DNA from: a virus
DNA: 64,000 nt
Virus record (IMG/VR): IMGVR_UViG_3300027833_000001
Location: 1-64,000 of that record
Strand: one strand, 5' to 3'
Shown here: in pieces, positions 45,625 through 64,000 of the stretch
How the letters are laid out: each line of letters opens with the position of its first letter
Position numbering within the stretch: the first letter of the stretch is position 1
Notes under the pieces: model-generated
Databases searched by the model: none
What the model saw: only the letters and a program-made list of their open reading frames with translations
Told to the model about the DNA's origin: nothing
Made by a program: the position numbers and the translations under genes

Positions 45625-46098
45625 TTACTGTCCTGCCAATGGGTTCTCTAATGCTAACTGAATTTGATCTGCAATAGACTTTCGGATATCAATCAACTCT
45701 TTACCGGTGTCTCTTTCAAGTTCATATAGTCTTTTGTCAGAACTTCTAAGATCCACAGAAAATCCACCTAAGTCTCCGTCGATTCTATTTATGCTTTCTC
45801 GCATCACGGAAAGATTAGTCTGCATTGCTTCAATCTTTGTGTCGTAAGATCCAATTATAGTATTCTGGCTTTCAACTGTTTCTTCTAGTACTGCTATTGA
45901 TTGATTTATAGCTGACAAGTCTGGTGCAACATATTCTTGGATAGTTTCTTTCATGTCCATGTAATCTTTATAGACTTCAAAACCTCCATATAACACACCA
46001 ACCGCGGACGATAGTGCAACTAGGATTCCAAATACTTTGCCTCCCTTAAATGAGATGCCACCGACCTCTATTTCCATTCCTTCTTTTTCTTTAGACAT
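45625..46098 (-). CDS. Membrane-anchored coiled-coil protein
   Basis: TM VFGILVALSSAVGVLYGGF, heptads, C-terminal ENPLA. Confidence 0.75.
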   Translation of the reverse strand: MSKEKEGMEIEVGGISFKGGKVFGILVALSSAVGVLYGGFEVYKDYMDMKETIQEYVAPDLSAINQSIAVLEETVESQNTIIGSYDTKIEAMQTNLSVMRESINRIDGDLGGFSVDLRSSDKRLYELERDTGKELIDIRKSIADQIQLALENPLAGQ

Positions 46099-48566: not shown

Positions 48567-48568
48567 GG

Positions 48569-49708
48569 CTACTTACAGACCTGTTCTTCTGGATATGATG
48601 CACAAAATTCAGGTTTTTTCCAAACTCTATATTCCATATTTTTATTAGATTTGATTGTTGTTCCGTTTGTCTTATCGAACACTCCATCAGGCATTCTTTC
48701 TGGTGATTGTTGCCATCTTGTTAAAGCATCATCGCCAATCTCTCCTTGGAATGGGCAAGGAGTTCCTGCCATTCGCATTGCGCTCCAGACTCTTTTGTCT
48801 TGGCACATTAAAGATACTGCGGCTACTTTCATGCCCATATCATACATTGTTTTGGAAAGTTTTATTCTCTCACAATTCATATCTCTTACAGACTTACCAG
48901 CAGACACACCGAATATTTGCGTCTGCACTGCACCACTGATTCCAGTTGTACATAAGTCTTGTGAGTATGATGAGCCAATACTAGGTGCGATTGCACTAGG
49001 AGGTGGAGACTTGATAGTAGTCTCTGATTTGTTTATATTCTCGTTTCTATTTGTATTCTCGTTCTTACTGTTGATATCAGATTTACTTTCTGATTTAGAG
49101 TTGTTGTTATTGGTGTTAGTATTATCCGAAGTACTATCACTTTTAACATTCTGGTCTACAGTTGAGTTCGAATTGGAATTAGAAGTTGAGTTCGAATTTA
49201 CCGTACTGTTGTTATTGTTATTGTTGGTGCTAGTACTGTTGATAGTGCTGGCATTTGTATTGGTATTATTGTTGGTATTATTCGAGGTGCTGTTGCTAGT
49301 ATTATTATTGGTATTAGTATTTGCACTAGTACTGTTAATAACACTAGTATTATTGTTGTTATTAGTATTTGTACTTGTGGAAGTATTTACATTATTGTTG
49401 TTATTGGTGTTCGTATTTGTGGACGTGTTGTTATTGGTGTTCGTATTTGTGTTTACACCAGTATACGTAGTTGCATTAGTATTAGTATTGTTGTTTGTGG
49501 ACGTATTAGTATTGGTATTGTTATTGGTGTTCGTTCCAGTGACCGTAGACGTTGTAGCCGTCGTGTTATTGATGTTAGTGGTCGATGAACTTTCCTCACA
49601 ATACTGTGTACCTGCAGTACACGTACCTGTCTGTGCGCCAAAAGCCATTGGAATAGCAAAAGCTGTTGCGGTTGCAAAGAATACGCCTATGATAGTATTC
49701 CGCTTCAT
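48569..49708 (-). CDS. Exported Asn/Thr/Ser-rich protein with conserved Cys-containing C-terminal domain
   Basis: Signal peptide; about 190 aa N/T/S tract; PPPSAIAP..DLC..NCERIKLSK..LMCQD..GTPCP; SD AAGGAG. Confidence 0.8.
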   Translation of the reverse strand: MKRNTIIGVFFATATAFAIPMAFGAQTGTCTAGTQYCEESSSTTNINNTTATTSTVTGTNTNNNTNTNTSTNNNTNTNATTYTGVNTNTNTNNNTSTNTNTNNNNNVNTSTSTNTNNNNNTSVINSTSANTNTNNNTSNSTSNNTNNNTNTNASTINSTSTNNNNNNSTVNSNSTSNSNSNSTVDQNVKSDSTSDNTNTNNNNSKSESKSDINSKNENTNRNENINKSETTIKSPPPSAIAPSIGSSYSQDLCTTGISGAVQTQIFGVSAGKSVRDMNCERIKLSKTMYDMGMKVAAVSLMCQDKRVWSAMRMAGTPCPFQGEIGDDALTRWQQSPERMPDGVFDKTNGTTIKSNKNMEYRVWKKPEFCASYPEEQVCK

Positions 49709-49793: not shown

Positions 49794-49822
49794 TTGACAT
49801 AATGAGTTCCATGGTGTATAAT
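49794..49822 (+). promoter_or_regulatory. Sigma70-type promoter
   Basis: TTGACA-17-TATAAT upstream of the desaturase operon. Confidence 0.75.
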
Positions 49823-49824
49823 GC

Positions 49825-49845
49825 TATTTATAACCGTAATAAATA
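49825..49845. promoter_or_regulatory. Back-to-back late promoters (TATAAATA on - at 49825-49832; AATAAATA on + at 49838-49845)
   Basis: Consensus matches in the divergent intergenic region. Confidence 0.7.
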
Positions 49846-49877
49846 CAAGTAGAAAGAGTAGAACTATGGTGATATAA

Positions 49878-50609
49878 ATGAGAAAAGCAGTACTTAAACA
49901 AAACAATTCCTGGGCACCCATCACATTGTTGATTAGCCAACTGATCGCTCAGGTGTCATTGATACCTATGATCATGTACGCACAGTCTTGGCAATGGATA
50001 CCATTCATCGCTGTCTATTGCGCTATGATGTTAGGTGTTACAATGGGATATCATCGATACTGGTCACACCATGCATTCAAGTGCAATAAAGTTATTGAGT
50101 ATGTTATGATGTTCTTTGCTCACGTTATGATGATCGGTCCAGCAATTACTTGGGCAGCCAATCATAGAGAACATCATAGATATGCTGATACGGAAAAAGA
50201 TCCACATTCACCTCACTATAGAGGTTGGCTTCTTGCATACTTTGGACAAGTTCTTATTAATATAAACTTCAAGTATGCCCGAGACTTATTGAAGCAGAAG
50301 TTATGTCGAGATCAGGTAAAGTATTATTGGCACGTTATAGGAGCATATGCTCTCTTGTTAGTTTTGATTGATCCGTTTGCTTTAATATATGCTTGGTTAG
50401 CACCAGCAGGTGCCGCTAAGTTGATTGGCTCTTTCGTATTTACATTTTCACATAGAGGCAAAGAAGCGCATAGTGATACTTGGTTAGGAATTATAACACT
50501 TGGTGAAGGTTTTCATAAAGCACACCATGATCACGGTAACAGACAAATTCTTTGGCATAAACTTGACCTTGGAGGACAGTTAATCAGACTTATTGATAAA
50601 ACTGCTTAA
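49878..50609 (+). CDS. Fatty acid (delta-9-type) desaturase
   Basis: His boxes HRYWSH, HREHH and GEGFHKAHH; DPHSP; TM helices. Confidence 0.92.
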   Translation: MRKAVLKQNNSWAPITLLISQLIAQVSLIPMIMYAQSWQWIPFIAVYCAMMLGVTMGYHRYWSHHAFKCNKVIEYVMMFFAHVMMIGPAITWAANHREHHRYADTEKDPHSPHYRGWLLAYFGQVLININFKYARDLLKQKLCRDQVKYYWHVIGAYALLLVLIDPFALIYAWLAPAGAAKLIGSFVFTFSHRGKEAHSDTWLGIITLGEGFHKAHHDHGNRQILWHKLDLGGQLIRLIDKTA

Positions 50610-50612
50610 ATT

Positions 50613-51311
50613 ATGAATTTTAAATATGTACCCTTTGTGGCTGATAGATTTGATTATGACTATTGTAGAAGACACCCGTATCGCAATCAATTAGAAGCAC
50701 ACCCAATCGCCAACGCAGATGATATGGCTTTACTCCATGAAAATCTTACGGACTGGGAAAAAGCTATTATCATTGCAGGAAGTTATTACTTTATTTGGGA
50801 TAGCTATGACCAGAAAAGAATAACAGAGCAATCAGACAAACTAATCAGCATTGAAGACTGTCAATTCTCTTCAGATGTCCATGCAAACTCTACCAGTCTT
50901 ATTAAAGAATATGTAGAAACATATCAAGGTACTTTTAGTTTCTTGATGGGTAACAATGACTACAGACCTAAAGCAGATAGCTACTTTAAACACGCACATC
51001 AACCTACAGAGATTGATGGCAAAACATATGAAGACACTTTCACGATTATCTATCCTATACATCTAGAAAATGACGTTATAGAAGAGTTCAAAATTTTCTA
51101 TGTGGAAGAAGAAGGAATCTACAAGCTATTAAAAGCACCATTGACTTATCCAGACGGAGATGTTAAAAGTGTAAGATTTCCTAAAAAGGGTGAAGCACTC
51201 TTGATACACTTTAATTCATGTAAGGGTATTCATTGGATAGACGGACTTACTAATAATAATTTTATGGCTCATGCATTTGATTCTGTCAATATGAGGAAAG
51301 AACTATGCTAA
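50613..51311 (+). CDS. Hypothetical protein, possible cupin/2OG-Fe(II) oxygenase fold
   Basis: FKHAH..TFTIIYP..LIHFNS..IHWI. Confidence 0.4.
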   Translation: MNFKYVPFVADRFDYDYCRRHPYRNQLEAHPIANADDMALLHENLTDWEKAIIIAGSYYFIWDSYDQKRITEQSDKLISIEDCQFSSDVHANSTSLIKEYVETYQGTFSFLMGNNDYRPKADSYFKHAHQPTEIDGKTYEDTFTIIYPIHLENDVIEEFKIFYVEEEGIYKLLKAPLTYPDGDVKSVRFPKKGEALLIHFNSCKGIHWIDGLTNNNFMAHAFDSVNMRKELC

Positions 51312-52003
51312 AGAAACGAGATTTGCCTGTTGTTGCTCCTATTCCAGGAATACGATTTAACTTGGATAAGATTAAAGAAGAACTTGCTAAGATAGAACAT
51401 CTATGGGAAGACATCTACAAAGCTAATCCCGGCATAACAAAATTACATGATCCATCTTTTGTTGATAATGCATATGCAAACTTAAAAGAGATTCCCTTGA
51501 TGGTAATGTCACCAGAGAATATGGCAAAAGCTGATGACTTTGAACTTGAAGATTTGGGTGCTACTCTTAGAGATAGAATTCGTAATAAGAAAGCGAAGGG
51601 TGATAACTTACCACCAACTGCAAATGAGATGTTGTGGGATTATCAGACTGATGCTTGTAGGGGTACTTACTTTGAAGAAGCATTAGCAGGACACTTTTCT
51701 GCACCAGTTTGTCGTGCTAGACTACACTTTCTTGCACCAGGTATGAGTTTACAACCACACATTGATTATGATCCATCTTATGGTGTTAGAATCGTCTGTC
51801 CTATATCTGGAACTGATGAATGTATCAATCAATTTTGGGTAAACGGTGAGTATCAAGAACATAATCTGCCAGCAGACGGAAGAGTTTGGTTTTTGAATAC
51901 TGGATTTAAACATGGCGTAGTAAATAATGGTACTGAGCCACGCATTGCATTATTAGCTACATTGAAGAGTCAGGAAGATATAGAATGTTTGAAATTAGTA
52001 TAG
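51305..52003 (+). CDS. Asp/Asn beta-hydroxylase-like 2OG-Fe(II) oxygenase
   Basis: LAPGMSLQPHID and WFLNTGFKHGVVNNGTEPRIAL. Confidence 0.8.
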   Translation: MLKKRDLPVVAPIPGIRFNLDKIKEELAKIEHLWEDIYKANPGITKLHDPSFVDNAYANLKEIPLMVMSPENMAKADDFELEDLGATLRDRIRNKKAKGDNLPPTANEMLWDYQTDACRGTYFEEALAGHFSAPVCRARLHFLAPGMSLQPHIDYDPSYGVRIVCPISGTDECINQFWVNGEYQEHNLPADGRVWFLNTGFKHGVVNNGTEPRIALLATLKSQEDIECLKLV

Positions 52004-52626
52004 TAGAGTATGATGGTTCTAAAATAGAAAGAGAACAGATAGAGAACTTTAGAGAGTTGTCTTTTAAAGAAGGTAATGATAGTTTAGCATATGACAAATA
52101 CGACCCAGACAAGACTGGTCAGACGTTTTTAAATTATGTTGATGGCAAGCTGGCTTCATTGAGTGTTATAGAGCCAAGTCATTACACGGGTGATCCAACT
52201 GTAGCCGCAAGAGGTTGCAGACTTCACATTGCTACTGAATTTAGACCTGCTTGGTTAGGATTGCTTCATGCACCTAAACAAATTATGTGGGCAAAAGAAA
52301 ATGGGTTTAAAGTATTCTTCTTTACGCATGATATTCGTAACAGAGCAATTAATGCAATGTATCAAAAACGAAGATTTGGTGGAGCAGTTACAGAGTTACA
52401 GAAACAGATGGAATGGATGTGGACTTCAGATTGGTATCAGGACTTGTCTCTTGATAGAAGACTATTATTTCAAGTCGATGAAAGGTCTGACTTATTACAG
52501 TATGTTTATTATTGGACATTAGAAGAAGGGTATGTCTGGAAACCACCTAGCAATGTTGTTTGGTATGACCACGATGGAAGAATAAAATCGAACGTAACAG
52601 AAAAGGAAATAATTAATGCACATTAG
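51985..52626 (+). CDS. Possible GNAT-fold acyltransferase
   Basis: DGKLASLS..RLHIATEFR..WAKENGFKVFF..N. Confidence 0.45.
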   Translation: MFEISIVEYDGSKIEREQIENFRELSFKEGNDSLAYDKYDPDKTGQTFLNYVDGKLASLSVIEPSHYTGDPTVAARGCRLHIATEFRPAWLGLLHAPKQIMWAKENGFKVFFFTHDIRNRAINAMYQKRRFGGAVTELQKQMEWMWTSDWYQDLSLDRRLLFQVDERSDLLQYVYYWTLEEGYVWKPPSNVVWYDHDGRIKSNVTEKEIINAH

Positions 52627-53227
52627 CGGTGAAGTAGTTGCCACTTGGTTTAACTTTCTTAGAGATAATCAAGATGATCCAGAAGTTTGTCGTAGATACT
52701 ACGAATGCTTTTGGGAAAGTCAATTGCAAAGTAAACAAGTAGTGTTGGACATGATTGATAGAATGGATGTGTATCAATGTTACATCTTTGGTGGATGGTA
52801 TGGGTTGCTTGCACAGATTTTACATGATTCAATCCGAAATCATCATCCTGTCGTTAGTGTTGATATAGACCCTAAGTGTGCTATTGTAATTAATAATTAT
52901 TTTAATCCTGAAGATGGTATTGTAGCACATACAGGTGATATGGCAACATATAAGTATATTATTAAGCCCGAACTTGTTATCAATTGTAGTACAGAACACG
53001 TTGATCAAAAAACATACGATGCTTGGTTTGATAGAATACCATTGAACACTGAGTACATTATTCAAGGTAATAATCTGGATATACCAGAGCATATAAGACT
53101 TGCAGATGATATTAATCATTTTAAAGATATTAATAGATGCACCAAAGTCATTGATAAGAGAGTTACTGACTGTCCTGGACCCAATGGAATCTTTCAGAGA
53201 TATACGATTAAGGGAATCAAAGTATAA
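52616..53227 (+). CDS. Class I SAM-dependent methyltransferase-like
   Basis: YIFGGWYG, SVDIDP, TGDM and VINCSTEH. Confidence 0.7.
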   Translation: MHISGEVVATWFNFLRDNQDDPEVCRRYYECFWESQLQSKQVVLDMIDRMDVYQCYIFGGWYGLLAQILHDSIRNHHPVVSVDIDPKCAIVINNYFNPEDGIVAHTGDMATYKYIIKPELVINCSTEHVDQKTYDAWFDRIPLNTEYIIQGNNLDIPEHIRLADDINHFKDINRCTKVIDKRVTDCPGPNGIFQRYTIKGIKV

Positions 53228-53230
53228 TAC

Positions 53231-54022
53231 ATGGACAAAAAAGTGATAGCAGTCCATCTAGGACTCAATAAAGAATATACTCTTAATATAGAACTCTTTG
53301 ATCACAGAGTGGCAAATCGAATATGGGAAATGATACGGGTAGCAGATGATGTAGACTTTGTTTCTCGTATGGAGTTTTATAAGTTTGGTAAAACTGAGTC
53401 ACAAGTAGAATCCGACTTATATGAAACAATAGAAGAACTAAAGCGATTAAAACCTGATACCTTTACACTAGATTATGATTTAAATAGATTACATGAAAAT
53501 TTTCCTGAGTTAGTACGCACAGAAACATCGTCATCGATAAAACACTGTTTGACAATGTTTAATTATCATCTGCATCATCTTGAAAGAATGCGTCAAGGTG
53601 GTGGAAGACAATTTTTATTCTGTAGCAACATTGAGTCAGAACCTTTACAAGATGAAGACTATGATCTTTTTACTATAGGCAATAAAGAAAACATTGCTTA
53701 TATGAACTATCCTCATGTGGGTAAGAGTGTTACAGAAATAGTACAACAAGAAGACACAGAAATTCCATCACAACATATTCTCCCTACAAGTGTAATCAAG
53801 CCAGATTTATTGTTTCACTTAGACGAAGATAGATGGATAGGGAACGAACAAACAATAGTAGAATACATAAACTCATGGCTTGTTAAGATACAACATAAGT
53901 TACCGTATCCTATTAACGATAAAAGATTGGCACTTGGACACATACCCATAGGTAAAATAATCGATCCAAATATAACTAGTATAACAGAGAATCAATACAT
54001 ACACAGCATAGAGGCTATATGA
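53231..54022 (+). CDS. Hypothetical protein
   Basis: 263 aa; LNRLHENF..NYHLHHLE..YPHVGK His motifs. Confidence 0.65.
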   Translation: MDKKVIAVHLGLNKEYTLNIELFDHRVANRIWEMIRVADDVDFVSRMEFYKFGKTESQVESDLYETIEELKRLKPDTFTLDYDLNRLHENFPELVRTETSSSIKHCLTMFNYHLHHLERMRQGGGRQFLFCSNIESEPLQDEDYDLFTIGNKENIAYMNYPHVGKSVTEIVQQEDTEIPSQHILPTSVIKPDLLFHLDEDRWIGNEQTIVEYINSWLVKIQHKLPYPINDKRLALGHIPIGKIIDPNITSITENQYIHSIEAI

Positions 54023-54570
54023 AAACTTTATCAATAGAAAGTTGGGGAACTCAAGCAGAATATATTCGTAGTGGTCTTAATCTGACGCTATTCGATAAAA
54101 ACCTAGCAGAGATAGTTGACAATGGTATTGATGCTTGTATTGTATGTACCTTCAACTTACTAAGCATTCCAAACTTTAAAGAGTTTCTTGATGTTATGTT
54201 GGAATTCAAGACTGTTGCATGGCTTCGTGGTGAAGGTAAGGTATCTTTGGACACTTTCCCAGTTCATAGTCATTATCATTTATCATCATTGATATTAGAT
54301 GATAAACAGCTTGACAACCTCCGCAATTTAGTGTATTATATGTCTAAATCTGTAGATGATAGGGATGTTACTAAATTTAACTCAATAGAGTTCGCTAAGT
54401 TTGAGCGAGTACTCACATGGGTTGAGGAGAATAGGTTTACTGGTGATGAATTAGTCAAGAATAGATTAGATTTTAAAAAGTTTATTGATGAACACGATAA
54501 GGAAAGGGGTACGAACTTTACCAAAACTTTTCCAGAATTGGAGTATTTCTACGAGATGTGTAATGGCTGA
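54019..54570 (+). CDS. Truncated paralog of the downstream radical SAM family (C-terminal half only)
   Basis: SIESWGTQAEYIRSGL, TFNLLSI and DKERGTNFTKTFPEL present, but no CxxxCxxC or GGEP. Confidence 0.7.
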   Translation: MKTLSIESWGTQAEYIRSGLNLTLFDKNLAEIVDNGIDACIVCTFNLLSIPNFKEFLDVMLEFKTVAWLRGEGKVSLDTFPVHSHYHLSSLILDDKQLDNLRNLVYYMSKSVDDRDVTKFNSIEFAKFERVLTWVEENRFTGDELVKNRLDFKKFIDEHDKERGTNFTKTFPELEYFYEMCNG

Positions 54571-55948
54571 AGAAGGCACTAATGAATATTGGATCAAAGA
54601 ATTAAAAGATAAAAGAATCAAGATAAATGAAATAAGTCCTTCTTTTTGTTCTGCTAAATGGTTACAGACTACTCTGATGTTACAGAATGGTTATAATCAT
54701 TCATGTCACCATCCATCCCCACACAAGATTCCTGTTGAAGAAGTCTTGGCAAATCCAGCGGCATTGCATAATAGTAATTATAAGAAAGTGCAAAGAGACA
54801 AGATGTTGTCTGGTGTTCGACCTAAAGAATGTGACTATTGTTGGAAGATAGAAGACTTAGACAAAGAGTATTTCTCTGACAGACATTACAAGACTGCTGA
54901 TTGGTGGGCTTGGGATAAAGTTGACATTATTGCAAAGAGCGATCCTTACGAAGATGTTTATCCTACTTACTTAGAAGTATCATTCAGTAATGCTTGCAAC
55001 TTTGCCTGTGCTTATTGCTCACCCGAAATATCTTCTGGGTGGATGAAAGACATTCAGAAAGATGGCGTGTATCCAGTTAAGTTTGGTTCACATGATTTGA
55101 ACTATCTTAAAGAAGTCGGCAAGTATCCATTCAAGAATAGTGATCCAAATCCTTATGTTGATGCATTTTGGAAATGGTTCCCAGAAGCATTTAAACATCT
55201 AAAAGTATTCCGCATTACTGGTGGTGAACCTACAATGTCAAAAGACTTTTGGAAAGCAGTCGATTATATTGTAGAACATCATCACGAAAATCCAGAACTT
55301 AAAATAGGAATCAATAGTAACTTAGGTACAGACCCACGTTTGATCGAAAGACTTATTGAGTCTGTTATAAGACTAGAATCACATGGCATTGATGTTGAGA
55401 TATTCACTAGCGCAGAAAGTACTGGTAATAAAGCCGAGTATGCTAGAGATGGTATTGTCTATGATGAATGGATAGCGAACATAGAACGTATGTTGACAGA
55501 AACAAATTGTCGTGTTGTTATTATGACAACGGTAAATATATTGTCGATATCTTCAATGGTTGAGTTTGTTCAAGATATAATGGACTTACGTATTAAGTTT
55601 AATCAGAACTTGGCGCATAATAGAATACCATTAAGTGTAAACTACTTACGTTATCCACCGCATTTACAGTGTACATTGTTGACACCTATTTACCGAGAGA
55701 CAATGGCTAATACATTAGAGGTATTTTGTGAGAGTTGGTTGAAGTATGATTCACCTGACAAATTTGCTAGATTGTACTTAGAAGAATTTGACCAAGTTAA
55801 AAGACTTTGTGACTATCTGAGATCGGAGCCTACCGCAGATAAATACAGAGAAGACTTTGCAAACTTTATTAAAGAATACGATAGGCGAAGAGGAAAGAAC
55901 TTTAAAAATACTTTCCCCGAATTGATTAAAGATATGGAGAAATGGTGA
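54563..55948 (+). CDS. Radical SAM enzyme with N-terminal Twitch/SPASM-like region (paralog 1)
   Basis: FCSAKW..SCHH..CDYC; CNFACAYC; TGGEP. Confidence 0.9.
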   Translation: MAEEGTNEYWIKELKDKRIKINEISPSFCSAKWLQTTLMLQNGYNHSCHHPSPHKIPVEEVLANPAALHNSNYKKVQRDKMLSGVRPKECDYCWKIEDLDKEYFSDRHYKTADWWAWDKVDIIAKSDPYEDVYPTYLEVSFSNACNFACAYCSPEISSGWMKDIQKDGVYPVKFGSHDLNYLKEVGKYPFKNSDPNPYVDAFWKWFPEAFKHLKVFRITGGEPTMSKDFWKAVDYIVEHHHENPELKIGINSNLGTDPRLIERLIESVIRLESHGIDVEIFTSAESTGNKAEYARDGIVYDEWIANIERMLTETNCRVVIMTTVNILSISSMVEFVQDIMDLRIKFNQNLAHNRIPLSVNYLRYPPHLQCTLLTPIYRETMANTLEVFCESWLKYDSPDKFARLYLEEFDQVKRLCDYLRSEPTADKYREDFANFIKEYDRRRGKNFKNTFPELIKDMEKW

Positions 55949-57456
55949 AAAAAGAACATGATTTAATTAAGTATCGGGAAGATATTCTTGATACCAAATC
56001 TAAAAGTTTTTGTGGTGCAAAGTGGTACAATGCTACTACTTGGTTGGGCAGTGGCACTACTGCTTCATGTCATCACCCGCCCGCGCATAAAATCCCACTA
56101 GACGAAATCAAAGTCGACCCATCTGCAATTCATAATACTAAGCATAAGAAAACTATGCGGAAGATGATGCAGAAAGGCGAACGTCCAAGAGAGTGTGAAT
56201 ACTGCTGGAAAGTAGAAGACATGGATACGGGTGCTGTTAGTGACCGTACATACAAGTCGATCATCTATTCAGAAGAAGAACTTCAAGCCGCATTTGAAAT
56301 GGACCCTGATGAGAGTGTTGATTTAAAAACATTTGAAATATCATTTGACCGTACTTGTCAGTTGGCTTGTTCTTATTGCAACTCAAGTTTCAGTACAACA
56401 TGGGCTAAAGATATTAATAAGAAAGGTCCATATCAGAATCTAGTATCTGATGGTGCTGGAGCATTCCAACATAACGGAGATTGGGCAGATCCATATGGCA
56501 AGAAAGAAACTAACCCGTATGTAACAGCATTCTGGGATTGGTGGAATGACGGACTATCTAAGAGTCTAGACGAATTGCGAGTTACTGGTGGTGAGCCGTT
56601 GATGTCAGATCAGGTATGGAAACTGTTTGACTGGTTTGGTGAGAATAAAACAGATATGAGATTTGCAATCAATTCAAACTTGATGGCAAAAGATTCTATC
56701 ATTGATGCGATGATTGCGAAGACACAGAAAGTAGATCAGTTCCATCTTTATACTAGTTGTGAAGCAACGGGATTACAAGCAGATTATATCCGCGACGGAT
56801 TACATTATGAAACTTGGAAAAATAATGTATACAAGATACTGACTAATGGTAGACTTAGTGGTTGTAATATTATGATGACTATTAATAGTTTATGTTTGTT
56901 TAGTATCACGGACTTTCTTGATGATGTATATGATATGAAAATACACACAGGAATGAAAGCACCTGTTGTTAGTTTAAACTTGTTACGTTTTCCTAGCTTT
57001 CAATCTCCTCTTGCTTTACCAGATCATCTTAAAGATCACTGTCGAAAGCAACTACAAGATTGGTGGGAAGAAAAGAAAGATTTAAAATTGTGGCATGAAT
57101 TTGAAAGGGCTAGTATAGAACGTCTTATTGACTATCTTGTTACTGTTGATGCACCACATAGACGTACAAGTGATAAGATGACTTTATGGAGAGACTTCAA
57201 AACTTTCTATGCTCAATACGATGAAAGAAGAGGGTTGTCATTATCTGTATTTCCTAAAATTCTTACTGACTGGGTAGAAACTATTCCTACTACAGAAACT
57301 ATTCCATTAAAAGAAATGATTGATGGTGATAGCACTAGACAGTATGACAATGACCCCGATTTACAAGAGACTGTATCGTTAGCGAATGAAGAGGGTTGGG
57401 TACTTGACCCAGATAGTGAGAATATTGATGAACCTTTAGCATCGTATGACGAATGA
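55942..57456 (+). CDS. Radical SAM enzyme (paralog 2)
   Basis: FCGAKW..SCHH..CEYC; CQLACSYC; TGGEP. Confidence 0.9.
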   Translation: MVKKEHDLIKYREDILDTKSKSFCGAKWYNATTWLGSGTTASCHHPPAHKIPLDEIKVDPSAIHNTKHKKTMRKMMQKGERPRECEYCWKVEDMDTGAVSDRTYKSIIYSEEELQAAFEMDPDESVDLKTFEISFDRTCQLACSYCNSSFSTTWAKDINKKGPYQNLVSDGAGAFQHNGDWADPYGKKETNPYVTAFWDWWNDGLSKSLDELRVTGGEPLMSDQVWKLFDWFGENKTDMRFAINSNLMAKDSIIDAMIAKTQKVDQFHLYTSCEATGLQADYIRDGLHYETWKNNVYKILTNGRLSGCNIMMTINSLCLFSITDFLDDVYDMKIHTGMKAPVVSLNLLRFPSFQSPLALPDHLKDHCRKQLQDWWEEKKDLKLWHEFERASIERLIDYLVTVDAPHRRTSDKMTLWRDFKTFYAQYDERRGLSLSVFPKILTDWVETIPTTETIPLKEMIDGDSTRQYDNDPDLQETVSLANEEGWVLDPDSENIDEPLASYDE

Positions 57457-58766
57457 CCAGTTCTTATTTTTGTACAGCACCATGGACACACACCTATGCC
57501 TCTCCTACTGGAGAGCGTAGGCTTTGTTGTGCAAGTAGAGAAGACGCATCGTTTCAAAAGCAATACATAGACTCTGGTAACAAAGCTGGAGAATTTAATC
57601 CTGTATCTTTGAAAGAACATTGGAACAGTGAGTACATGAAAGATATTCGCAAACGTATGCTTGCGGGTGAGAAAATAAAACAGTGTGAAGTATGTAATGA
57701 TAATATATTAAACTTACACACCTATAGAAAATACTTTACGGAAACATTGTTCCCACATAAAGTGGAAGATATAATAGCTAGAACAGAGCCAGATGGTCAT
57801 TACAACGATCTTCCTATTTCATATGACTATCGTATATCAAATCTTTGCAACTTCAAATGTAGAATGTGTGGTGATCAGTTGTCGAGCAGTTGGGAAGCAG
57901 AGAATAAGATAAATGGTAGAATGCAAACTCAACCATGGACACAAAAAGACACTAGAAAGAAAATAGATACATTTCAGAAAGAAGTGTTAGAAGAAGAACT
58001 TCAAGCCGCAGTAGATGAGCGTAGAATAGAAGAAATATATTGGGTAGGTGGTGAGCCTTTAATGTGGGAACGCCATTGGACTATCTTAGAACAATTAGTG
58101 TATGATGGACAAGCAAAGGATGTTACACTAAGATATAATACAAATTTAAGTAGAGTATCATACAAGGGTATTGAGTTGTTCGACTTACTTCCACATTTCA
58201 AGCACGTTAATCTATGTGCATCGATTGATGGAGCTGGTGAAGTCGGTGAGTATATTAGAACTGGTCTAAAGTGGGATGAGTGGCTAGATAATTTTAAAAA
58301 AGGTATTCCTTTAATAGAAAAATATGGCAATGATGCTATGGTGTTTGATGTTACATTGACAACTCCAGGATTGTTTGATTTAAAACGCCTGTTCGATGTT
58401 GTTACAGAATTGGATGTAAAATCGTACTTCAAGTTCACTTTTGCATTTGATCCATCTGTTGTTATGAGTCCTTTATGTTTGCCCAGAGAGATATTAGAAG
58501 AAACCGTTAACGATTTGATTGATTACATTACTCCTAGAATGACTGATAAGACCCATGTATATAAAACATCTCTTGTTAATCTTTTGACTAGACAGACATT
58601 TCAAGAACAGTGGCCAAGAAAGTATGAAGAAGGAATCAGAAGTGGTAAAGGACATATGAAATATCTTGATCGTATTAGAAACGATAATATTGTTTTTAGA
58701 GACACTCTATCTGATAGTGCAAAAATCTGGTGGGATGCAATACCAGAAAATGAGGATTTGCCATGA
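57453..58766 (+). CDS. Radical SAM enzyme (paralog 3)
   Basis: FCTAPWTH..LCC..CEVC; CNFKCRMC; VGGEP. Confidence 0.9.
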   Translation: MTSSYFCTAPWTHTYASPTGERRLCCASREDASFQKQYIDSGNKAGEFNPVSLKEHWNSEYMKDIRKRMLAGEKIKQCEVCNDNILNLHTYRKYFTETLFPHKVEDIIARTEPDGHYNDLPISYDYRISNLCNFKCRMCGDQLSSSWEAENKINGRMQTQPWTQKDTRKKIDTFQKEVLEEELQAAVDERRIEEIYWVGGEPLMWERHWTILEQLVYDGQAKDVTLRYNTNLSRVSYKGIELFDLLPHFKHVNLCASIDGAGEVGEYIRTGLKWDEWLDNFKKGIPLIEKYGNDAMVFDVTLTTPGLFDLKRLFDVVTELDVKSYFKFTFAFDPSVVMSPLCLPREILEETVNDLIDYITPRMTDKTHVYKTSLVNLLTRQTFQEQWPRKYEEGIRSGKGHMKYLDRIRNDNIVFRDTLSDSAKIWWDAIPENEDLP

Positions 58767-59956
58767 GTAAAACTTTTTGCCCTTTACCATGGACACATTT
58801 GGCTACACACCCCCAAGGTGAATTGACTCTTTGTTGTGAAGCGGATCATACAATGGGAATCTCTGAAGCATTTGATACTGATGAGTTTGGTCAACGTAAG
58901 CCGAGAACTCTTCATACAACTGAATATGATTTCGATGCAATACAGAACAGTGGTTCATTTAGTCGAGTCAGAAGAGAGATGCTTGACGGTAAGAAACCTC
59001 CTCAATGTACAAGATGTTTCGACTTAGAGAAAGTTGGAATAAAATCTAAACGTCAATATGAAAGCGACCGATTAAACTTTGATGAAACCAAAGCAATAGA
59101 AATAACAAATGCCGACGGAACAATCAATGAAGTTTCTTACGAGTTTGTTGAGTTACGTTTGGGTAATCATTGTAATCTAGCTTGTCGTTCTTGCAACCCA
59201 TTATCAACTAGCCGATGGACAAAAGATTGGAATGAAGTAAATCCTGATAATAAACTTTCAGTTACACAGAAGCTATTCAACTGGCCACTTGATACTGATT
59301 TCTGGGAGAAACTGTTAGAGCATTCTAATACACTTAGGTATGTTTATATTAACGGTGGAGAGCCATTACTAATTGATAAGCACTTGCAATTCTTAATTGA
59401 TCTTGTTAAGTGTGGTAGATCAAAAGATATTACTTTAGTTTATTCTACTAATTGCACTGTTGTTAACCACATATACGAAGACGTATGGCGACACTTCAAG
59501 CACGTACAGTTAATGGTATCTATTGATTGTCTAGCTGAAAGAAATTCGTTTATTCGCTCACCATCAAAGTGGGATGTTATACTACAGACATTAGAATGGA
59601 TAAAAGCAATATGTAAAGTAGATAATATATCATACAATATTATGCAAACGGTTTCTGTTTATAACATCTATTATATGAAAGAGTTCCATGAATTCTTTGA
59701 GTTTGCACCTTACGTATCGATGAACTTTGTGACTGATCCTTCTTATCTGGATCCTGCACTATTACCACAAGAGATAAAAGATGCTGTTATTGCTAAGTTC
59801 CCAAACCAGACAGTTATAGATTATTTGTCTAAAGGTGAATGCGCTGACAACATGAAAGAATTCCACAAGAAGAATGCTAAGATGGATGAATTGAGAAAAC
59901 AAGATTTCAAAGCAACATTCCCAGAACTATACGATATGGTGATTCCCTATGTCTGA
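58763..59956 (+). CDS. Radical SAM enzyme (paralog 4)
   Basis: FCPLPWTH..LCC..CTRC; CNLACRSC; NGGEP. Confidence 0.9.
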   Translation: MSKTFCPLPWTHLATHPQGELTLCCEADHTMGISEAFDTDEFGQRKPRTLHTTEYDFDAIQNSGSFSRVRREMLDGKKPPQCTRCFDLEKVGIKSKRQYESDRLNFDETKAIEITNADGTINEVSYEFVELRLGNHCNLACRSCNPLSTSRWTKDWNEVNPDNKLSVTQKLFNWPLDTDFWEKLLEHSNTLRYVYINGGEPLLIDKHLQFLIDLVKCGRSKDITLVYSTNCTVVNHIYEDVWRHFKHVQLMVSIDCLAERNSFIRSPSKWDVILQTLEWIKAICKVDNISYNIMQTVSVYNIYYMKEFHEFFEFAPYVSMNFVTDPSYLDPALLPQEIKDAVIAKFPNQTVIDYLSKGECADNMKEFHKKNAKMDELRKQDFKATFPELYDMVIPYV

Positions 59957-61145
59957 TAAATTTTTCTGTGTAGCACCATTTGTTCATCTTTATGGACACA
60001 CAACAGGAGCAATTAAAACTTGTTGTGTTGGTGAAAAAACTTACGGTGATACAAAAGTAAATTCACTTGAAGAAATATGGCACAATGATGAATTTAAAAA
60101 TCTTAGAAAAGAATTTATTGCTGGTGATATCACAGATAATATAGCTAAGAATTGTGCCACTTGTATTAACTTTGAAAAGTCTGGAGTGCATAGTTTACGT
60201 ACAGCTATGAATGACTCTTATATGCAGTTCGCTGACATAGAAGAAGATCCTGATTTAAACTTAATGTATATGGATTTTAGATTTAATAATTTTTGTAACT
60301 TTAAATGTCGAGGTTGTTACAACGAGTATAGTAGTTCTATTAATGATGAAGATCATGGAGAAAGACAAGATATTATTTTTGCGGGTAAAACTGATAGAGA
60401 CATATTCGATCAAATTTATCCGTTGTTAGAAGATGTACAGAAAATTTATTTTGCTGGTGGTGAGCCTCTCATACAATGGCAACATTGGGAAATACTTGAA
60501 AGACTAGTAGAGATTGGAAGAACTGATGTTACCCTAGTGTACAATACAAATTTCAGCACAATGAAATATAAGGGTGGTAAAAATGTTATTGACTACTGGA
60601 AGAAATTTACTGACATTCAACTCTTATTGAGTTTTGATGGTATAGACAAAGGAGCAGAATACTGGCGAAATGGTTCTGACTGGCCACGACTTGTTAAGAA
60701 TGTTCATCGAGTAGTAAATGAAGCACCTCATGTTAATGTAGGTTGTACTACTACAGTTGGTTGGGCTAATCTGTACACTGCTATGGATTTTATTGATTAT
60801 TGTTCAGATAACTCAAAGACATTTATTAATCCTGAAGGTATAAATATAAACGTATTGCAACACCCAGTACATTTTTGTGTGCAGACTCTTCCTGATTGGA
60901 AGAAAGAAGAACTTGAAATACGCATTAGAAAAACACTGCATAAATATGATAGTATGGGATATAAAGATTCCTTACTATCTCGTAATCTACACGCATTGAT
61001 CACTTTCATGTGGGCAGACCGAAACGATAAAGTAGTACTTAAAGGTGCATGGAAAAGGATTGTTACTAAAAGAGACAAACTTAGAAATGAAAACTTCTTT
61101 GAGACATTTCCAGAACATATAAACATGAAAGAGTTAGTTGAATGA
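59949..61145 (+). CDS. Radical SAM enzyme (paralog 5)
   Basis: FCVAPFVH..TCC..CATC; CNFKCRGC; AGGEP. Confidence 0.9.
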   Translation: MSDKFFCVAPFVHLYGHTTGAIKTCCVGEKTYGDTKVNSLEEIWHNDEFKNLRKEFIAGDITDNIAKNCATCINFEKSGVHSLRTAMNDSYMQFADIEEDPDLNLMYMDFRFNNFCNFKCRGCYNEYSSSINDEDHGERQDIIFAGKTDRDIFDQIYPLLEDVQKIYFAGGEPLIQWQHWEILERLVEIGRTDVTLVYNTNFSTMKYKGGKNVIDYWKKFTDIQLLLSFDGIDKGAEYWRNGSDWPRLVKNVHRVVNEAPHVNVGCTTTVGWANLYTAMDFIDYCSDNSKTFINPEGININVLQHPVHFCVQTLPDWKKEELEIRIRKTLHKYDSMGYKDSLLSRNLHALITFMWADRNDKVVLKGAWKRIVTKRDKLRNENFFETFPEHINMKELVE

Positions 61146-62410
61146 GTGATGATATTTTTCCAATAAAAACTGCTACAGCCTGTCAATTCAAATGGTCATG
61201 GAGTACAATATTCTTATCTAAGGGTACAACTACAAGTTGTCACCGTTGCAACCATTGGGAATTTGATTTAAGCACACTCAAAGACTTTCATAATCTTCCT
61301 GGAAAGATTGGTGATAGAGAGAAGATGCTTGATGGTTTATGGCCAGGGAATGGATGTGAGTATTGTAAGAAGATTGAAGATGTTGGTGGTTCTAGTGAAC
61401 GTACAGCTTGGATAAACAAAAAAGATTTGATACCACCTGAGATTCTTGCTGGTGATATGAAAGCAACTAAAGTTACTCCACGTTTATTAGAAGTTTACTT
61501 TACCAACGTATGTAATCAAGCCTGTGTCTATTGTACTCCCCAATTCAGTTCCCAAATCGAAGCAGAACTTAGAAAGCACGGAGAAATACCAGCTAATCCT
61601 AGCTACATGAATCATCCTAGTATTGGCGATAACTATCCATTGTATCTACAGAAATTTTGGGAGTGGATGGAAGAACACGGATCAAAACTGTATGAGTTTC
61701 AGACTCTTGGTGGCGAACCTATGTATCAAAAAGAGTTTGAGCAGTGTATAAACTTCTTTGATAAACATCCAAATCCAAATCTCATTTGGAGAATCTTCAG
61801 CAATCTAAAGCATGATGAAGAGAAATTTAAAAAGAAGATTCAAAAAGTTAATGATCTTATTGCAAACAAAAAGATACGAGAGTTTCATATTGTTGCAAGC
61901 CAAGATTGTTGGGGTCCTCAAGCAGAGTACGCCAGATATGGAATGAATCTAAAGAACTGGGAAGCTAATCTCAGATATTGTTTATCACAGGGTGTTCCCG
62001 TTAATATCCATATGACAATCAGCGCACTGACTATTCCTACTCTAGGAGATTTCATAGACAAGATTTACAGTCTACGTAAAGAATACAAAGCAGGATTATG
62101 GATTAGTTCTAACACTATTGTTAAACCTGAATGTTTAGATCCATATATTTTTGGTGATAAAATTGCATTTTACTTAGAAGATGTTCTTACTAAGCTAACT
62201 GATCCAAATGACAAAGATCAGAAAGAATGTTTAGAAGGCATTCTTGTAGGAATGAAGTCTAGTAAAGTAAATATAAAAGAAGTAAATGATTTTAAAAATT
62301 ATTTGGATGAGATTGATAGGAGACGAAATACGAATTGGCGAATTCTTTATCCTGTTATCAGTGATATAACGGAGACAATTACGGAGAATATAATTGGCAC
62401 GTCAAGATGA
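61142..62410 (+). CDS. Radical SAM enzyme (paralog 6)
   Basis: ACQFKW..SCHR..CEYC; CNQACVYC; LGGEP. Confidence 0.9.
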   Translation: MSDDIFPIKTATACQFKWSWSTIFLSKGTTTSCHRCNHWEFDLSTLKDFHNLPGKIGDREKMLDGLWPGNGCEYCKKIEDVGGSSERTAWINKKDLIPPEILAGDMKATKVTPRLLEVYFTNVCNQACVYCTPQFSSQIEAELRKHGEIPANPSYMNHPSIGDNYPLYLQKFWEWMEEHGSKLYEFQTLGGEPMYQKEFEQCINFFDKHPNPNLIWRIFSNLKHDEEKFKKKIQKVNDLIANKKIREFHIVASQDCWGPQAEYARYGMNLKNWEANLRYCLSQGVPVNIHMTISALTIPTLGDFIDKIYSLRKEYKAGLWISSNTIVKPECLDPYIFGDKIAFYLEDVLTKLTDPNDKDQKECLEGILVGMKSSKVNIKEVNDFKNYLDEIDRRRNTNWRILYPVISDITETITENIIGTSR

Positions 62411-63980
62411 GCCTTTAACTGCCAATCAGGGCGATAGGATAATATTACTTTTAGAACGTATTGCAGAAGCACTTGAACATCCAAAACTTAGCCACAATAC
62501 GACCACGATATCTAATACTATTCCTAGACCGAATCTTGGTAGATATGAACAGGCAGAGTATCCAGAAATTACTTTCAATGTATTCTTTGATAGATTCAAT
62601 GAGTCTGTTACTAACCCCAATGGTAATGGACAAGCACAATACCCTCCAAATGGAAGTTTAAAAGATCATATTTGGGATACTATTTTCCAAAGAATGAAAA
62701 CACATACGTTTGCAATAAGAGCATACGATGTAAAAGACTATGAAAGCGCATCAAAGTCATTTGATGAGAATGATGTCAATATTTTCCCAGTAGATTTGTG
62801 GGTAGATATGGAATTTGGCAAATCAATATCATCAATATCAGATAACGCAAAGAAGCTAATTGCAGACAAAAAACTATCACTGTTCTTATGTCTAATGGGT
62901 GAAGCGTTTGGATGTGATTATGAAGACTGGATAGCTAAACTCTCACAAGCAATTATAGGACATGGTCTTGCACAAGGTAAGATTGCAATATCATGTGCTG
63001 ACTTACGATTCCCAGAAAACTACGAAGAGTGGTCTAAAGACAATACTAAAATAACTTCCATGTTTAAATTTGAGAATATATTTCCATATGAATATTTTCA
63101 GTTGTTATATGCAGAACAATTTCAAGCAAGAACTGGTAGATGGTTACCTGAAGGCAAGCCAGCTAAATTCGGTAATATAGATGCACTAAGACCTATAAGC
63201 GAGGCTGAAGTCATGTTGAGTGTTCCTGATGGAACTACTAAGACTAAAGACTTCTTATGTATGAATGCCAGATCGAGACCACATAGAATTGCTATGGTAT
63301 CAGAACTGCATAGATTAGGATTAGATAATAACTTTATTAGTTTATTGTTTAGAGGTGATGATGTTGATAGTATTGTTAACCAAGATGGAATAATTAATTT
63401 TATCCGCAATGAATATATGGACACTGAAGCGAAACTAAATCACTTCAACACAATGTTTGTTAAGAATAGAAGTAAGAGAAAAATAATACTAGATGCAGAT
63501 GAAGCAGTCCATGCAGATGATAGAATACTTAATACCAAATATTTTGATGAGTCTTATTTTAGTCTTGTTACAGAAACAAATTTTGGAGTAACACTTGGTG
63601 AAGGTCAATTTCATCAAGAGTCATACAACACAACGATGTTTATTACAGAGAAGACATTTAAACCTATAGCGTATTTTCATCCTATTATTGTTTTAGGATC
63701 TCCTTATACATTAGCATTTTTAAAAGACGAGGGTTACGATACTTTCGAAGAGATGTTTGATGAGTCATATGATTTAATACTTGATCCACAAGAACGCTTT
63801 AACGCTGTTGTTACCCAAGTGAACAACTGGTGTAGAAAACCAGAAAAAGAAAAACGAGAGATATACGATTCAGTTAAGAAGAAGTTACATCACAATCATT
63901 GCCACTTTATCGGTAGATTTGATACACTGAGAAGAAGGGAGAAAAACTACTACAGGTATTTAGGGGCAAAATTAAGATGA
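62394..63980 (+). CDS. Putative GT-B glycosyltransferase-like protein (GT10/exostosin-like C-terminus)
   Basis: FLCMNARSRPHR, SYFSLVTET and FITEKTFKPI..PIIVLG; TTG start with SD GGAG. Confidence 0.55.
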   Translation: MARQDEPLTANQGDRIILLLERIAEALEHPKLSHNTTTISNTIPRPNLGRYEQAEYPEITFNVFFDRFNESVTNPNGNGQAQYPPNGSLKDHIWDTIFQRMKTHTFAIRAYDVKDYESASKSFDENDVNIFPVDLWVDMEFGKSISSISDNAKKLIADKKLSLFLCLMGEAFGCDYEDWIAKLSQAIIGHGLAQGKIAISCADLRFPENYEEWSKDNTKITSMFKFENIFPYEYFQLLYAEQFQARTGRWLPEGKPAKFGNIDALRPISEAEVMLSVPDGTTKTKDFLCMNARSRPHRIAMVSELHRLGLDNNFISLLFRGDDVDSIVNQDGIINFIRNEYMDTEAKLNHFNTMFVKNRSKRKIILDADEAVHADDRILNTKYFDESYFSLVTETNFGVTLGEGQFHQESYNTTMFITEKTFKPIAYFHPIIVLGSPYTLAFLKDEGYDTFEEMFDESYDLILDPQERFNAVVTQVNNWCRKPEKEKREIYDSVKKKLHHNHCHFIGRFDTLRRREKNYYRYLGAKLR

Positions 63981-64000
63981 AAATAAATTTATTCTATGAT
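63977..64000 (+). CDS. Start of next gene, truncated by the window end
   Basis: ATGA overlap with the previous stop; MKINLFYD. Confidence 0.5.

Follow-up and report, generated by a model that had tools for sequence, protein, structure and literature searches.

Which molecule does a marine T4-like phage build or alter when it commits ~13% of its genome to one string of tailoring genes? We address this question in IMG/VR virus record IMGVR_UViG_3300027833_000001, a complete genome of 165,127 bp with direct terminal repeats, whose bases 1-64000 form the stretch analysed here (the window, 64,000 nucleotides; positions beyond 64000 are window coordinates continued into the rest of the genome). The phage is T4-like, with PHROG matches that include a primase, the ribonucleotide reductase large subunit and a DNA ligase, and its gene island of 23 co-directional, mostly overlapping genes begins at 49878 and extends over ~21 kb to ~70797. 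A reading made from the letters of the window without database searches (the sequence-only reading) had described this region as a contiguous, mostly overlapping operon of 14 kb or more and had proposed an undescribed phage pathway for the heavy modification of a protein, glycan or lipid. The operon is indeed one co-directional gene string from 49878, and the block is real, although it does not stop at 64000, and the proposal of an undescribed pathway is supported, with purifying selection on its genes (below). The island proved to be optional and horizontally shuffled: it occupies a slot that varies among marine T4-like phages and is bordered by a late operon on one side and by the p102-phoH gene pair on the other. 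We tentatively propose, as a reading that may well be correct, that this biosynthetic island tailors an unusual sugar in the host cytoplasm and transfers it to an acceptor.

An optional island under purifying selection

Relatives of the island were compared as viral loci that carry 10-kb flanks only, so that absences near locus ends are weak evidence, and the 33 viral loci with both flanks complete serve as the base for presence counts. Shorter versions of the island occupy the same slot in other relatives, and no near-identical DNA was found in cultured phages. When compared with the closest relative (locus L016, ~85% nucleotide identity), every island gene tested has a ratio of nonsynonymous to synonymous substitutions (dN/dS) of 0.03-0.20; all tested genes are under purifying selection, and relaxed selection of the island genes is ruled out. 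Membrane helices occur in the desaturase alone and a signal peptide in no island protein, the rest being soluble. For the ten unassigned island proteins, Pfam searches at E up to 5 returned noise only. On the conserved flank of the slot, a glycosyltransferase gene (43253-44197; phrog_842, E 6e-48) keeps 83-93% identity among relatives, whether or not they carry the island.

A conserved core of N-terminal-twitch radical SAM enzymes

The island carries an array of radical S-adenosylmethionine (SAM) genes, of which the sequence-only reading had counted seven. Six (rs1-rs6) are intact and belong to the N-terminal-twitch radical SAM family (NCBIfam NF033640; 217-346 bits vs. a cut-off of 170), and the seventh survives as a 183-aa C-terminal remnant that lacks the CxxxCxxC motif. 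The CxxxCxxC cysteines (C137, C141 and C144), a GGEP motif (G198-P201) and four N-terminal cysteines are invariant in rs1-rs6, and the twitch/SPASM-like cysteine domain lies N-terminal to the core (Pfam SPASM at residues 6-85 in rs3, rs4 and rs5; in rs3 itself, SPASM at residues 7-82, then Radical_SAM at 127-283). Two ligand subtypes are present, CC (rs3-rs5) and SCH[HR] (rs1, rs2 and rs6). Identity among the six is 21-29%, and in 82 related viral loci a distinct set of orthologues, 45-79% identical, could be assigned to each of rs1-rs4, which rules out a recent tandem duplication; judged from these identities, rs1-rs6 are anciently diverged paralogues.

Orthologues are present in 21 (rs1, at an identity of at least 45%), 28 (rs2) and 29 (rs3) of the 33 fully flanked loci and in only 4 each for the variable members rs5 and rs6; related loci hold 2-8 radical SAM genes apiece, and relatives of rs4 were found on at least 249 IMG/VR viral contigs. 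A profile of the six paralogues was too divergent as a locus query, and an alignment of orthologues was used instead. Beyond these loci, tblastn with rs3 and rs4 returned only 21-28% relatives, in Vibrio phages, the Ralstonia phage RsoM2USA and one uncultured marine virus record; none of 14 model genomes reached the NF033640 cut-off, and a PDB sequence-profile search with the radical SAM family gave no match. The AlphaFold model of rs4 (pLDDT 89) has a core that matches viperin, the top neighbour, and anSME, BlsE, SkfB, PFL-AE and MoaA at Z 11-12.4, and this fold does not reveal the substrate because its neighbours tie across enzymes that act on peptides, nucleotides and sugars.

Three more radical SAM genes lie outside the island (7928-9541; genome 76498-77997; ~149.3-149.9 kb); none belongs to NF033640, and one has a B12-binding domain. 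A weak match to the A-type iron-sulfur (Fe-S) carrier family (PF01521) at genome 130784-131071 scores 24.2 bits, just under the cut-off, and this protein could help to supply clusters to the many Fe-S enzymes of the phage, a role that has been reported in other environmental T4-like genomes.

Sugar-handling genes beside the core

The array is followed by genes of a different character, beginning with gtA, which the sequence-only reading had taken for a glycosyltransferase (GT)-like gene. That call holds through its 41%-identical paralogue gtB, whose AlphaFold model (pLDDT 74, pTM 0.78) shows a GT-B fold with two Rossmann-like domains. Foldseek relates the model to OtsA and glycogen synthase (probability 0.95-1.0), and in VIA-align the top 16 matches are all glycosyltransferases, as are almost all of the top 50. 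The best of these is the H. pylori alpha1,3-fucosyltransferase 5zoi, of family GT10 (Z 12.8, root-mean-square deviation 4.7, 290 residues), and the GT-B matches include T4 beta-glucosyltransferase (Z 12.0) and T4 alpha-glucosyltransferase (Z 9.4), with GT10, T4 beta-glucosyltransferase and others tied within Z 1. Further along, a nucleotide-sugar dehydrogenase matches PF00984 (E 1.5e-17) and PF03721 (E 5e-13), both above cut-off, reaches 127 bits with TIGR03026 (cut-off 190), and has no C-terminal UDP-binding domain reported. A NodU/CmcH carbamoyltransferase matches PF16861 (E 2e-53; 181 bits vs. 27) and PF02543 (E 5e-29; 102 bits vs. 24). Two SGNH-like proteins were assigned from motifs only, and a PDB profile search with the SGNH-like protein gave nothing usable. 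GT-like genes occur in 24 of the 33 fully flanked loci, the carbamoyltransferase in 20 and the dehydrogenase in 17. The GT genes vary most (25-40% identity) and rs1-rs3 keep 60-79%, a pairing that fits a conserved moiety delivered to variable acceptors.

The link between radical SAM and carbamoyltransferase genes, with SGNH or DUF6071 genes in some cases, recurs in a Bacteriovoracaceae chromosome and in RsoM2USA, a cultured jumbo phage of Ralstonia. In the latter, an rs2 orthologue (55% identity) lies near a carbamoyltransferase (47%) and three DUF6071 genes. Orthologues in cellular genomes were found in Bdellovibrionota only; the complete Bacteriovoracaceae chromosome OZ223251.1 has 16 family matches, arranged in pairs and in a five-gene group at ~1.11-1.12 Mb. 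An rs1-like/rs2-like pair (rs2 orthologue, 45%) there adjoins a carbamoyltransferase and then a GDSL hydrolase, and an rs3-like/rs4-like pair lies beside TsaD, KsgA, SmpB, uracil phosphoribosyltransferase and thymidine kinase. Distant carbamoyltransferases (26-28% identity) of the cultured phages HTVC008M, Mosig and S-CAM1 sit among sugar-nucleotide genes, with a UDP-glucose dehydrogenase (HTVC008M), an ArnB-like aminotransferase (Mosig) or heptose genes (S-CAM1) as neighbours.

Two further arrangements were seen in these genomes. One Bacteriovoracaceae radical SAM pair follows a 619-aa pilin-like protein with an N-methylation motif and a tetratricopeptide-repeat protein. Pelagibacter phage Mosig EXVC030M holds at 62-71 kb, in one string, MoaA-annotated radical SAM genes, the ArnB-like aminotransferase, the carbamoyltransferase and a methyltransferase, and this string is a distant, culturable analogue of the island.

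A tentative route from nucleotide sugar to acceptor

We favour sugar tailoring because of the dehydrogenase, the carbamoyltransferase, the three GT-B enzymes, the SGNH-like proteins, the combination of variable GTs with a radical SAM core that is conserved, and the sugar-nucleotide genes that surround related carbamoyltransferases. The solubility of all island proteins but the desaturase, the low dN/dS values, the sigma-70-type promoter and the recurrence of the carbamoyltransferase link outside marine T4-like phages also speak for the proposal. The island enzymes would work in the cytoplasm of the host and would probably begin early in infection. There, the nucleotide-sugar dehydrogenase would supply a nucleotide sugar of the uronic-acid type, and the radical SAM core rs1-rs4, with its variable extras, would make edits at the level of C-H bonds, either in the sugar itself or in an intermediate that carries it. 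The carbamoyltransferase and the SGNH-like, GNAT-like, methyltransferase-like and 2-oxoglutarate (2OG) oxygenase proteins would add or remove small groups, and the three GT10-like GT-B enzymes would move the product to its acceptor, which may be a glycoconjugate of the envelope on the inner membrane face, a protein of the phage or a micro-peptide. Our data establish the gene content, the folds, the conservation, the purifying selection, the island behaviour and the promoter type; the order of these steps, the sugar substrate and the acceptor are our inference.

Several observations weigh against this proposal. The proteins gtA, gtB and gtC have no Pfam, NCBIfam, PHROG or PDB-profile match, and GT-B is a fold-level call; no flippase, polymerase or priming transferase was found in the island; and the rs4 model ties between peptide-acting enzymes (anSME, SkfB, CteB) and those that act on nucleotides or sugars (viperin, BlsE, MoaA). 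To our knowledge, the NF033640 family has only been catalogued, with no member of known reaction or substrate. The Bacteriovoracaceae rs3/rs4 pair stands among housekeeping genes with no GT nearby, the early timing of the island is drawn from promoter sequence alone, and a pure sugar pathway leaves unexplained an invariant DPFIY peptide (described below) that in some loci is fused to a radical SAM enzyme. The features of the island and its surroundings are collected in Table 1.

Table 1. Features in and around the island, in window coordinates continued beyond 64000.
Feature	Position	Strand	Remarks
Late-promoter operon: exported Asn/Thr-rich protein, 822-aa protein, 157-aa membrane-anchored coiled-coil protein	45625-49708	-	
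Sigma-70-type promoter TTGACA-17-TATAAT	49794..49822	+	12/12; 56 nt 5' of first island gene
Exact T4-type late promoter TATAAATA	49825..49832	-	Heads divergent Asn-rich operon; outside island
Membrane fatty-acid-desaturase-family di-iron protein, 243 aa	49878..50609	+	PF00487
232-aa protein, no family match	50613..51311	+	
2OG/Fe(II) oxygenase, Asp/Asn beta-hydroxylase family	51305..52003	+	PF05118
GNAT-like acyltransferase (tentative, weak support)	51985..52626	+	
Class I methyltransferase-like protein (tentative, weak support)	52616..53227	+	
263-aa gene, no family match	53231..54022	+	Recent cassette
3' remnant of radical SAM gene, 183 aa	54019..54570	+	C-terminal third of NF033640 model
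rs1, SCHH subtype	54563..55948	+	NF033640 308 bits; Cys motifs intact; ATG 54563 likely start
rs2, SCHH subtype	55942..57456	+	NF033640 293 bits
rs3, CC subtype	57453..58766	+	NF033640 346 bits
rs4, CC subtype	58763..59956	+	NF033640 343 bits
rs5, CC subtype, variable member	59949..61145	+	NF033640 314 bits
rs6, SCHR subtype, variable member	61142..62410	+	NF033640 217 bits
gtA, GT-B-type glycosyltransferase-like, 528 aa	62394..63980	+	41% identical to gtB
gtB, GT-B glycosyltransferase-like, 469 aa	63977-65386	+	Runs off window at 64000; AlphaFold model
Nucleotide-sugar dehydrogenase	65383-66537	+	PF00984, PF03721
37-aa micro-gene ending RDPFIYD	66534-66647	+	AAGGAG site; overlaps dehydrogenase stop and carbamoyltransferase start
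NodU/CmcH carbamoyltransferase	66640-68079	+	PF16861, PF02543
SGNH-like protein	68079-68777	+	SGNH motifs
gtC, third GT-like paralogue, 399 aa	68758-69957	+	Motifs common to gtA and gtB
279-aa possibly SGNH-like protein	69958-70797	+	SGNH motifs; last island gene
p102 (102-aa gene)	70802-71110		Conserved flank, directly after last island gene
phoH	71142-71903		Conserved flank after p102

A micro-gene tied to the carbamoyltransferase

A peptide that ends in DPFIY plus 1-2 residues is encoded in 41 of 42 carbamoyltransferase loci, including that of RsoM2USA, by a gene that usually abuts the carbamoyltransferase gene and sometimes lies one gene upstream of it. The DPFIY motif is invariant while the remainder of the peptide varies freely, and between this phage and L016 the micro-gene differs at 22 of 114 bases and 3 residues (dN 0.07, dS 3.6). 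In six loci an intact, rs5-like radical SAM enzyme carries the motif as its C-terminal tail. The micro-gene is thus a real, strongly constrained element tied to the carbamoyltransferase and to the radical SAM family, and its peptide may be a substrate, a scaffold or a docking tail.

We reasoned that this peptide could itself be what the island works on: the radical SAM enzymes would edit its C-terminal motif, carbamoylation and glycosylation would follow, and a natural product or cofactor of a new, virus-encoded class would result, comparable to the glycosylated cofactor mycofactocin, which derives from a peptide, or to small molecules assembled at the C-terminus of a scaffold peptide. The invariance of the motif, its fusion to an rs5-like enzyme, the constraint and the AAGGAG site that mark the micro-gene as real, and the presence of the peptide maturases anSME, SkfB, CteB and EpeE among the structural neighbours of rs4 all speak for such a peptide-scaffolded product, which we nonetheless consider unlikely. 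The peptide follows the carbamoyltransferase and not the radical SAM array, for it was seen in none of ~45 radical SAM loci that have no carbamoyltransferase in reach; nor does it adjoin the distant carbamoyltransferase genes in C48C1, HTVC008M, Mosig or S-CAM1, or occur in the rs1-rs2-carbamoyltransferase locus of the Bacteriovoracaceae chromosome. No island protein has a Pfam or NCBIfam match to a PqqD-like domain or RiPP recognition element (RRE; RiPP, ribosomally synthesized and post-translationally modified peptide), although remote RREs could be missed by such searches, and no leader peptidase or exporter was detected with the same libraries among the 23 island genes. A substrate fused to its own enzyme, moreover, would allow one turnover only, and a docking tail is equally plausible. 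The sequence-only reading had also thought of RiPP-type modification, with the Asn-rich protein encoded next to the island as one candidate substrate; the idea fails for that protein (below) and is kept only in another form, through the 37-aa micro-gene.

The front block and a possible role in envelope lipids

The sugar proposal must also be set against the genes at the front of the island, of which the first and third bear out their earlier annotation. The desaturase matches PF00487 (E 6.7e-15; 56 bits vs. a cut-off of 29.7), has three His boxes (HRYWSH, HREHH and HKAHH) and three hydrophobic helices, and evolves at a dN/dS of 0.07. The Asp/Asn-hydroxylase-like oxygenase is above cut-off for PF05118 (25.1 bits vs. 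22.6), and its HxD...H...R residues (H152-x-D154, H203 and R213), the 2-His-1-carboxylate triad and the 2OG-binding Arg, are invariant in 11 homologues, with profile matches to the PDB 2OG hydroxylases 7v4f and 4p7w at E 3e-3. Two other annotations are weakly supported: the GNAT-like protein has no Pfam match, and its homologue profile matches the GNATs 1tiq, 8osp, 2i79 and 4e2a at E 1e-3 to 6e-2; the profile of the methyltransferase-like protein, which has homologues in 31 of 89 loci, matches the class I methyltransferase 3dtn at E 6.5e-5 over the GxG region. The cupin-like call was not confirmed: the 232-aa product, conserved in 5 loci at a dN/dS of 0.07, has no match in Pfam (E up to 5) or the other libraries searched, and PDB profile and ESM Atlas searches gave nothing usable.

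The supposed His-motif protein likewise belongs to no family in the libraries searched and has no usable ESM Atlas match, and its 263-aa gene proved to be a recent arrival. In L016 the position of 53231-54570 is taken by a radical SAM gene that is intact (443 aa); in this phage the 263-aa gene replaces the first ~790 bp (the 5' two-thirds) of that seventh radical SAM gene. It is 94.7% identical in nucleotides to L023:5006-5796 amid flanks of ~70%, and its dS is 0.23 where its neighbours are saturated, with a dN/dS of 0.08; we therefore regard it as a recently exchanged functional cassette. The remnant that follows shares 65-67% identity with the C-terminal part of the full-length gene in L016 and scores 77-79 bits with NF033640 (cut-off 170) over model positions ~236-398; it has no twitch domain, CxxxCxxC or GGEP.

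These front genes raise the prospect that the island remodels envelope lipids or lipid A, with the desaturase, hydroxylase, GNAT and methyltransferase editing acyl chains or aminolipids, the GTs and dehydrogenase making glycolipids of the glucuronosyl type, and the radical SAM enzymes acting on lipid chains. The PF05118 family includes the lipid A hydroxylase LpxO. The membrane desaturase, the first gene of the island, is syntenic with the oxygenase-GNAT-methyltransferase block in 11-16 loci, a desaturase homologue stands among the radical SAM genes of a distant jumbo-phage locus (L073), rs5 has a weak NCBIfam match to the tetraether lipid synthase Tes (E 4e-5), and the island adjoins phoH. 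We judge lipid remodelling to be distinctly improbable all the same: the desaturase-oxygenase-GNAT block is accessory, missing from most radical SAM loci and with orthologues in 12-15 of the 33 fully flanked ones, sugar tailoring is the typical setting of carbamoyltransferase and SGNH proteins, and the Tes match reflects core radical SAM similarity only.

An early-type promoter and possible nucleic-acid modification

The sequence-only reading had placed a back-to-back late promoter pair between the island and the divergent Asn-rich operon, and had the island expressed late. The spacer between the two units is 169 bp long; its sole exact TATAAATA lies on the minus strand at 49832, and late-like words on its plus strand reach 7/8 only. 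The island side has instead a sigma-70-type promoter with all 12 positions matched. Perfect 12/12 sites of this class number ~20 genome-wide, where ~0.06 would be expected by chance (a rough estimate), and one lies directly 5' of the primase gene. Exact TATAAATA words are scattered genome-wide on the plus strand, several of them before ribosome-binding sites at 95-132 kb, and exact late promoters head the structural region as well as the divergent Asn-rich operon. The two operons belong, by these motifs, to different promoter classes, and the late pair does not survive, nor is late expression of the island supported; its promoter is early-type, and early expression would be expected by analogy with T4-like phages. 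A second sigma-70-like site, TTGACA-17-TATTAT (11/12), at 54311-54339 inside the radical SAM remnant and upstream of rs1, may be an internal promoter.

An early-type promoter would suit a pathway that modifies nucleic acids or nucleotides, early like the DNA-modification genes of T4, to yield a glycosylated, carbamoylated DNA base or modified nucleotides. Also in keeping with this are the T4 glucosyltransferases among the GT-B matches, the position of viperin as top structural neighbour of rs4, and the company kept by the Bacteriovoracaceae rs3/rs4 pair. But a thymidylate-synthase/dCMP-hydroxymethylase homologue (PF00303) was not found in the genome, in a search with positive controls in 10 of 14 genomes, and glycosylation of hydroxymethylcytosine (hmC)- or hydroxymethyluracil (hmU)-type DNA is accordingly disfavoured; the best GT match is GT10, all such matches being fold-level ties; radical SAM core similarity is uninformative on substrate; and such a pathway, which we hold to be very improbable, offers no role for the membrane desaturase and the SGNH proteins.

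Independence from the Asn-rich operon

The sequence-only reading had named the exported Asn/Thr-rich protein encoded next door as a candidate substrate. Besides a signal peptide and an N/T-rich region, this protein has a C-terminal domain that is conserved and contains Cys, and its operon has PHROG matches solely to families of unknown function. The C-terminal domain occurs on 459 viral contigs; among the best 80 of these, the 822-aa gene is present in 57 and the 157-aa gene in 56, and radical SAM genes lie within 10 kb in ~16. The three genes form a module of their own. One relative (L116) is a clean empty site, in which phoH-p102 is followed by a ~300-bp spacer with its own TATAAATA and then by the Asn-rich operon with no island between; its identity to this phage is 74% for the Asn-rich domain, 74% for phoH and 83% for the upstream glycosyltransferase. 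Conversely, six long island-bearing records are without the Asn-rich domain, two of them being jumbo-phage genomes at least 90% complete. Because the two are distributed independently in both directions and an exact empty site exists, we read their adjacency as a shared variable slot and not as a functional pair. Modification of the Asn/Thr-rich protein by the island, for which the adjacent and divergent arrangement in this phage and four related records speaks, is essentially refuted by these distributions, by the different promoter classes and by a signal peptide that would part it from the predicted cytoplasmic island enzymes.

Discussion

Sugar tailoring and transfer thus stays our tentative answer, and whatever the product, the system seems common in large aquatic phages, given the number of IMG/VR contigs with rs4 relatives. 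Its conserved core consists of rs1-rs4, the carbamoyltransferase and the micro-peptide, and RsoM2USA is a cultured carrier of part of this core; together with the Bdellovibrionota orthologues and the clean borders of the island, this makes the problem testable. A glycan of the envelope or the virion as product would have consequences for the host range of ocean phages and for superinfection exclusion; a product truly derived from the peptide would represent a viral natural product of a new kind, and the peptide would be the first substrate known for the NF033640 family. In either case, a false lead (the Asn-rich protein) has been removed and the inferred timing corrected.

Radical SAM cassettes have been noted in the host-recognition clusters of pelagimyophages, along with glycosyltransferases, UDP-glucose dehydrogenase and Asp/Asn hydroxylase, with no function assigned (Zaragoza-Solas 2020, PMC7029224), and 12 radical SAM genes, again with no function assigned, in a T4-like environmental viral genome (Nishimura 2017, PMC5332604); O-antigen modification, or Fe-S demand, has been suggested for such genes (PMC7029224; PMC5332604). 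Literature text searches for the family name, the N-terminal twitch and the DPFIY motif found nothing. The present analysis adds the empty site and the finding that island and Asn-rich module are independent; it also defines the promoter class, documents the cassette replacement, links the system to Bdellovibrionota and RsoM2USA, and reveals the fusion of peptide and radical SAM enzyme.

Comparison with known systems

The six intact enzymes agree with the N_Twi_rSAM family NF033640 in scoring above its cut-off and in having, in every case, a Cys-rich twitch/SPASM-like segment before the CxxxCxxC core; what differs is that they form an array of 21-29% identical paralogues of two ligand subtypes inside a phage island. 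With the published host-recognition clusters (PMC7029224; PMC5332604) the island shares a marine T4-like setting, GTs, UDP-glucose dehydrogenase, Asp/Asn beta-hydroxylase and radical SAM cassettes; the rs1-rs4 core, the carbamoyltransferase link, the micro-peptide and the island borders do not figure in those papers.

The pathways of BlsE (blasticidin S), DesII (desosamine) and AprD4/BtrN (aminoglycosides) also place radical SAM enzymes beside nucleotide-sugar enzymes and transferases, and BlsE (Z 11.9), DesII (Z 9.6) and AprD4 (Z 8.1) are found among the structural neighbours of rs4. The substrate of BlsE is a derivative of glucuronic acid, and the island encodes a predicted uronic-acid-forming dehydrogenase. 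The island differs from these clusters in that its enzymes have no sequence relation to theirs beyond the radical SAM core, carry an N-terminal auxiliary domain, number six and are phage-borne. In the mycofactocin and PQQ systems, a radical SAM enzyme acts on the conserved C-terminus of a small peptide, and mycofactocin is later glycosylated and methylated; a likeness may be seen in the small peptide with an invariant C-terminal aromatic motif near radical SAM, GT and methyltransferase-like genes, whereas the searches found neither an RRE chaperone nor a peptidase nor a C-terminal SPASM here, and the peptide follows the carbamoyltransferase.

The carbamoyltransferase itself resembles the O-carbamoyltransferases NodU, CmcH and TobZ, both Pfam domains being far above their cut-offs. 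The 26-34% identical carbamoyltransferases of cultured cyanophages and pelagiphages have no adjacent DPFIY peptide, and the enzyme of the island stands apart from NodU, CmcH and TobZ as a member of a phage subfamily that this peptide accompanies.

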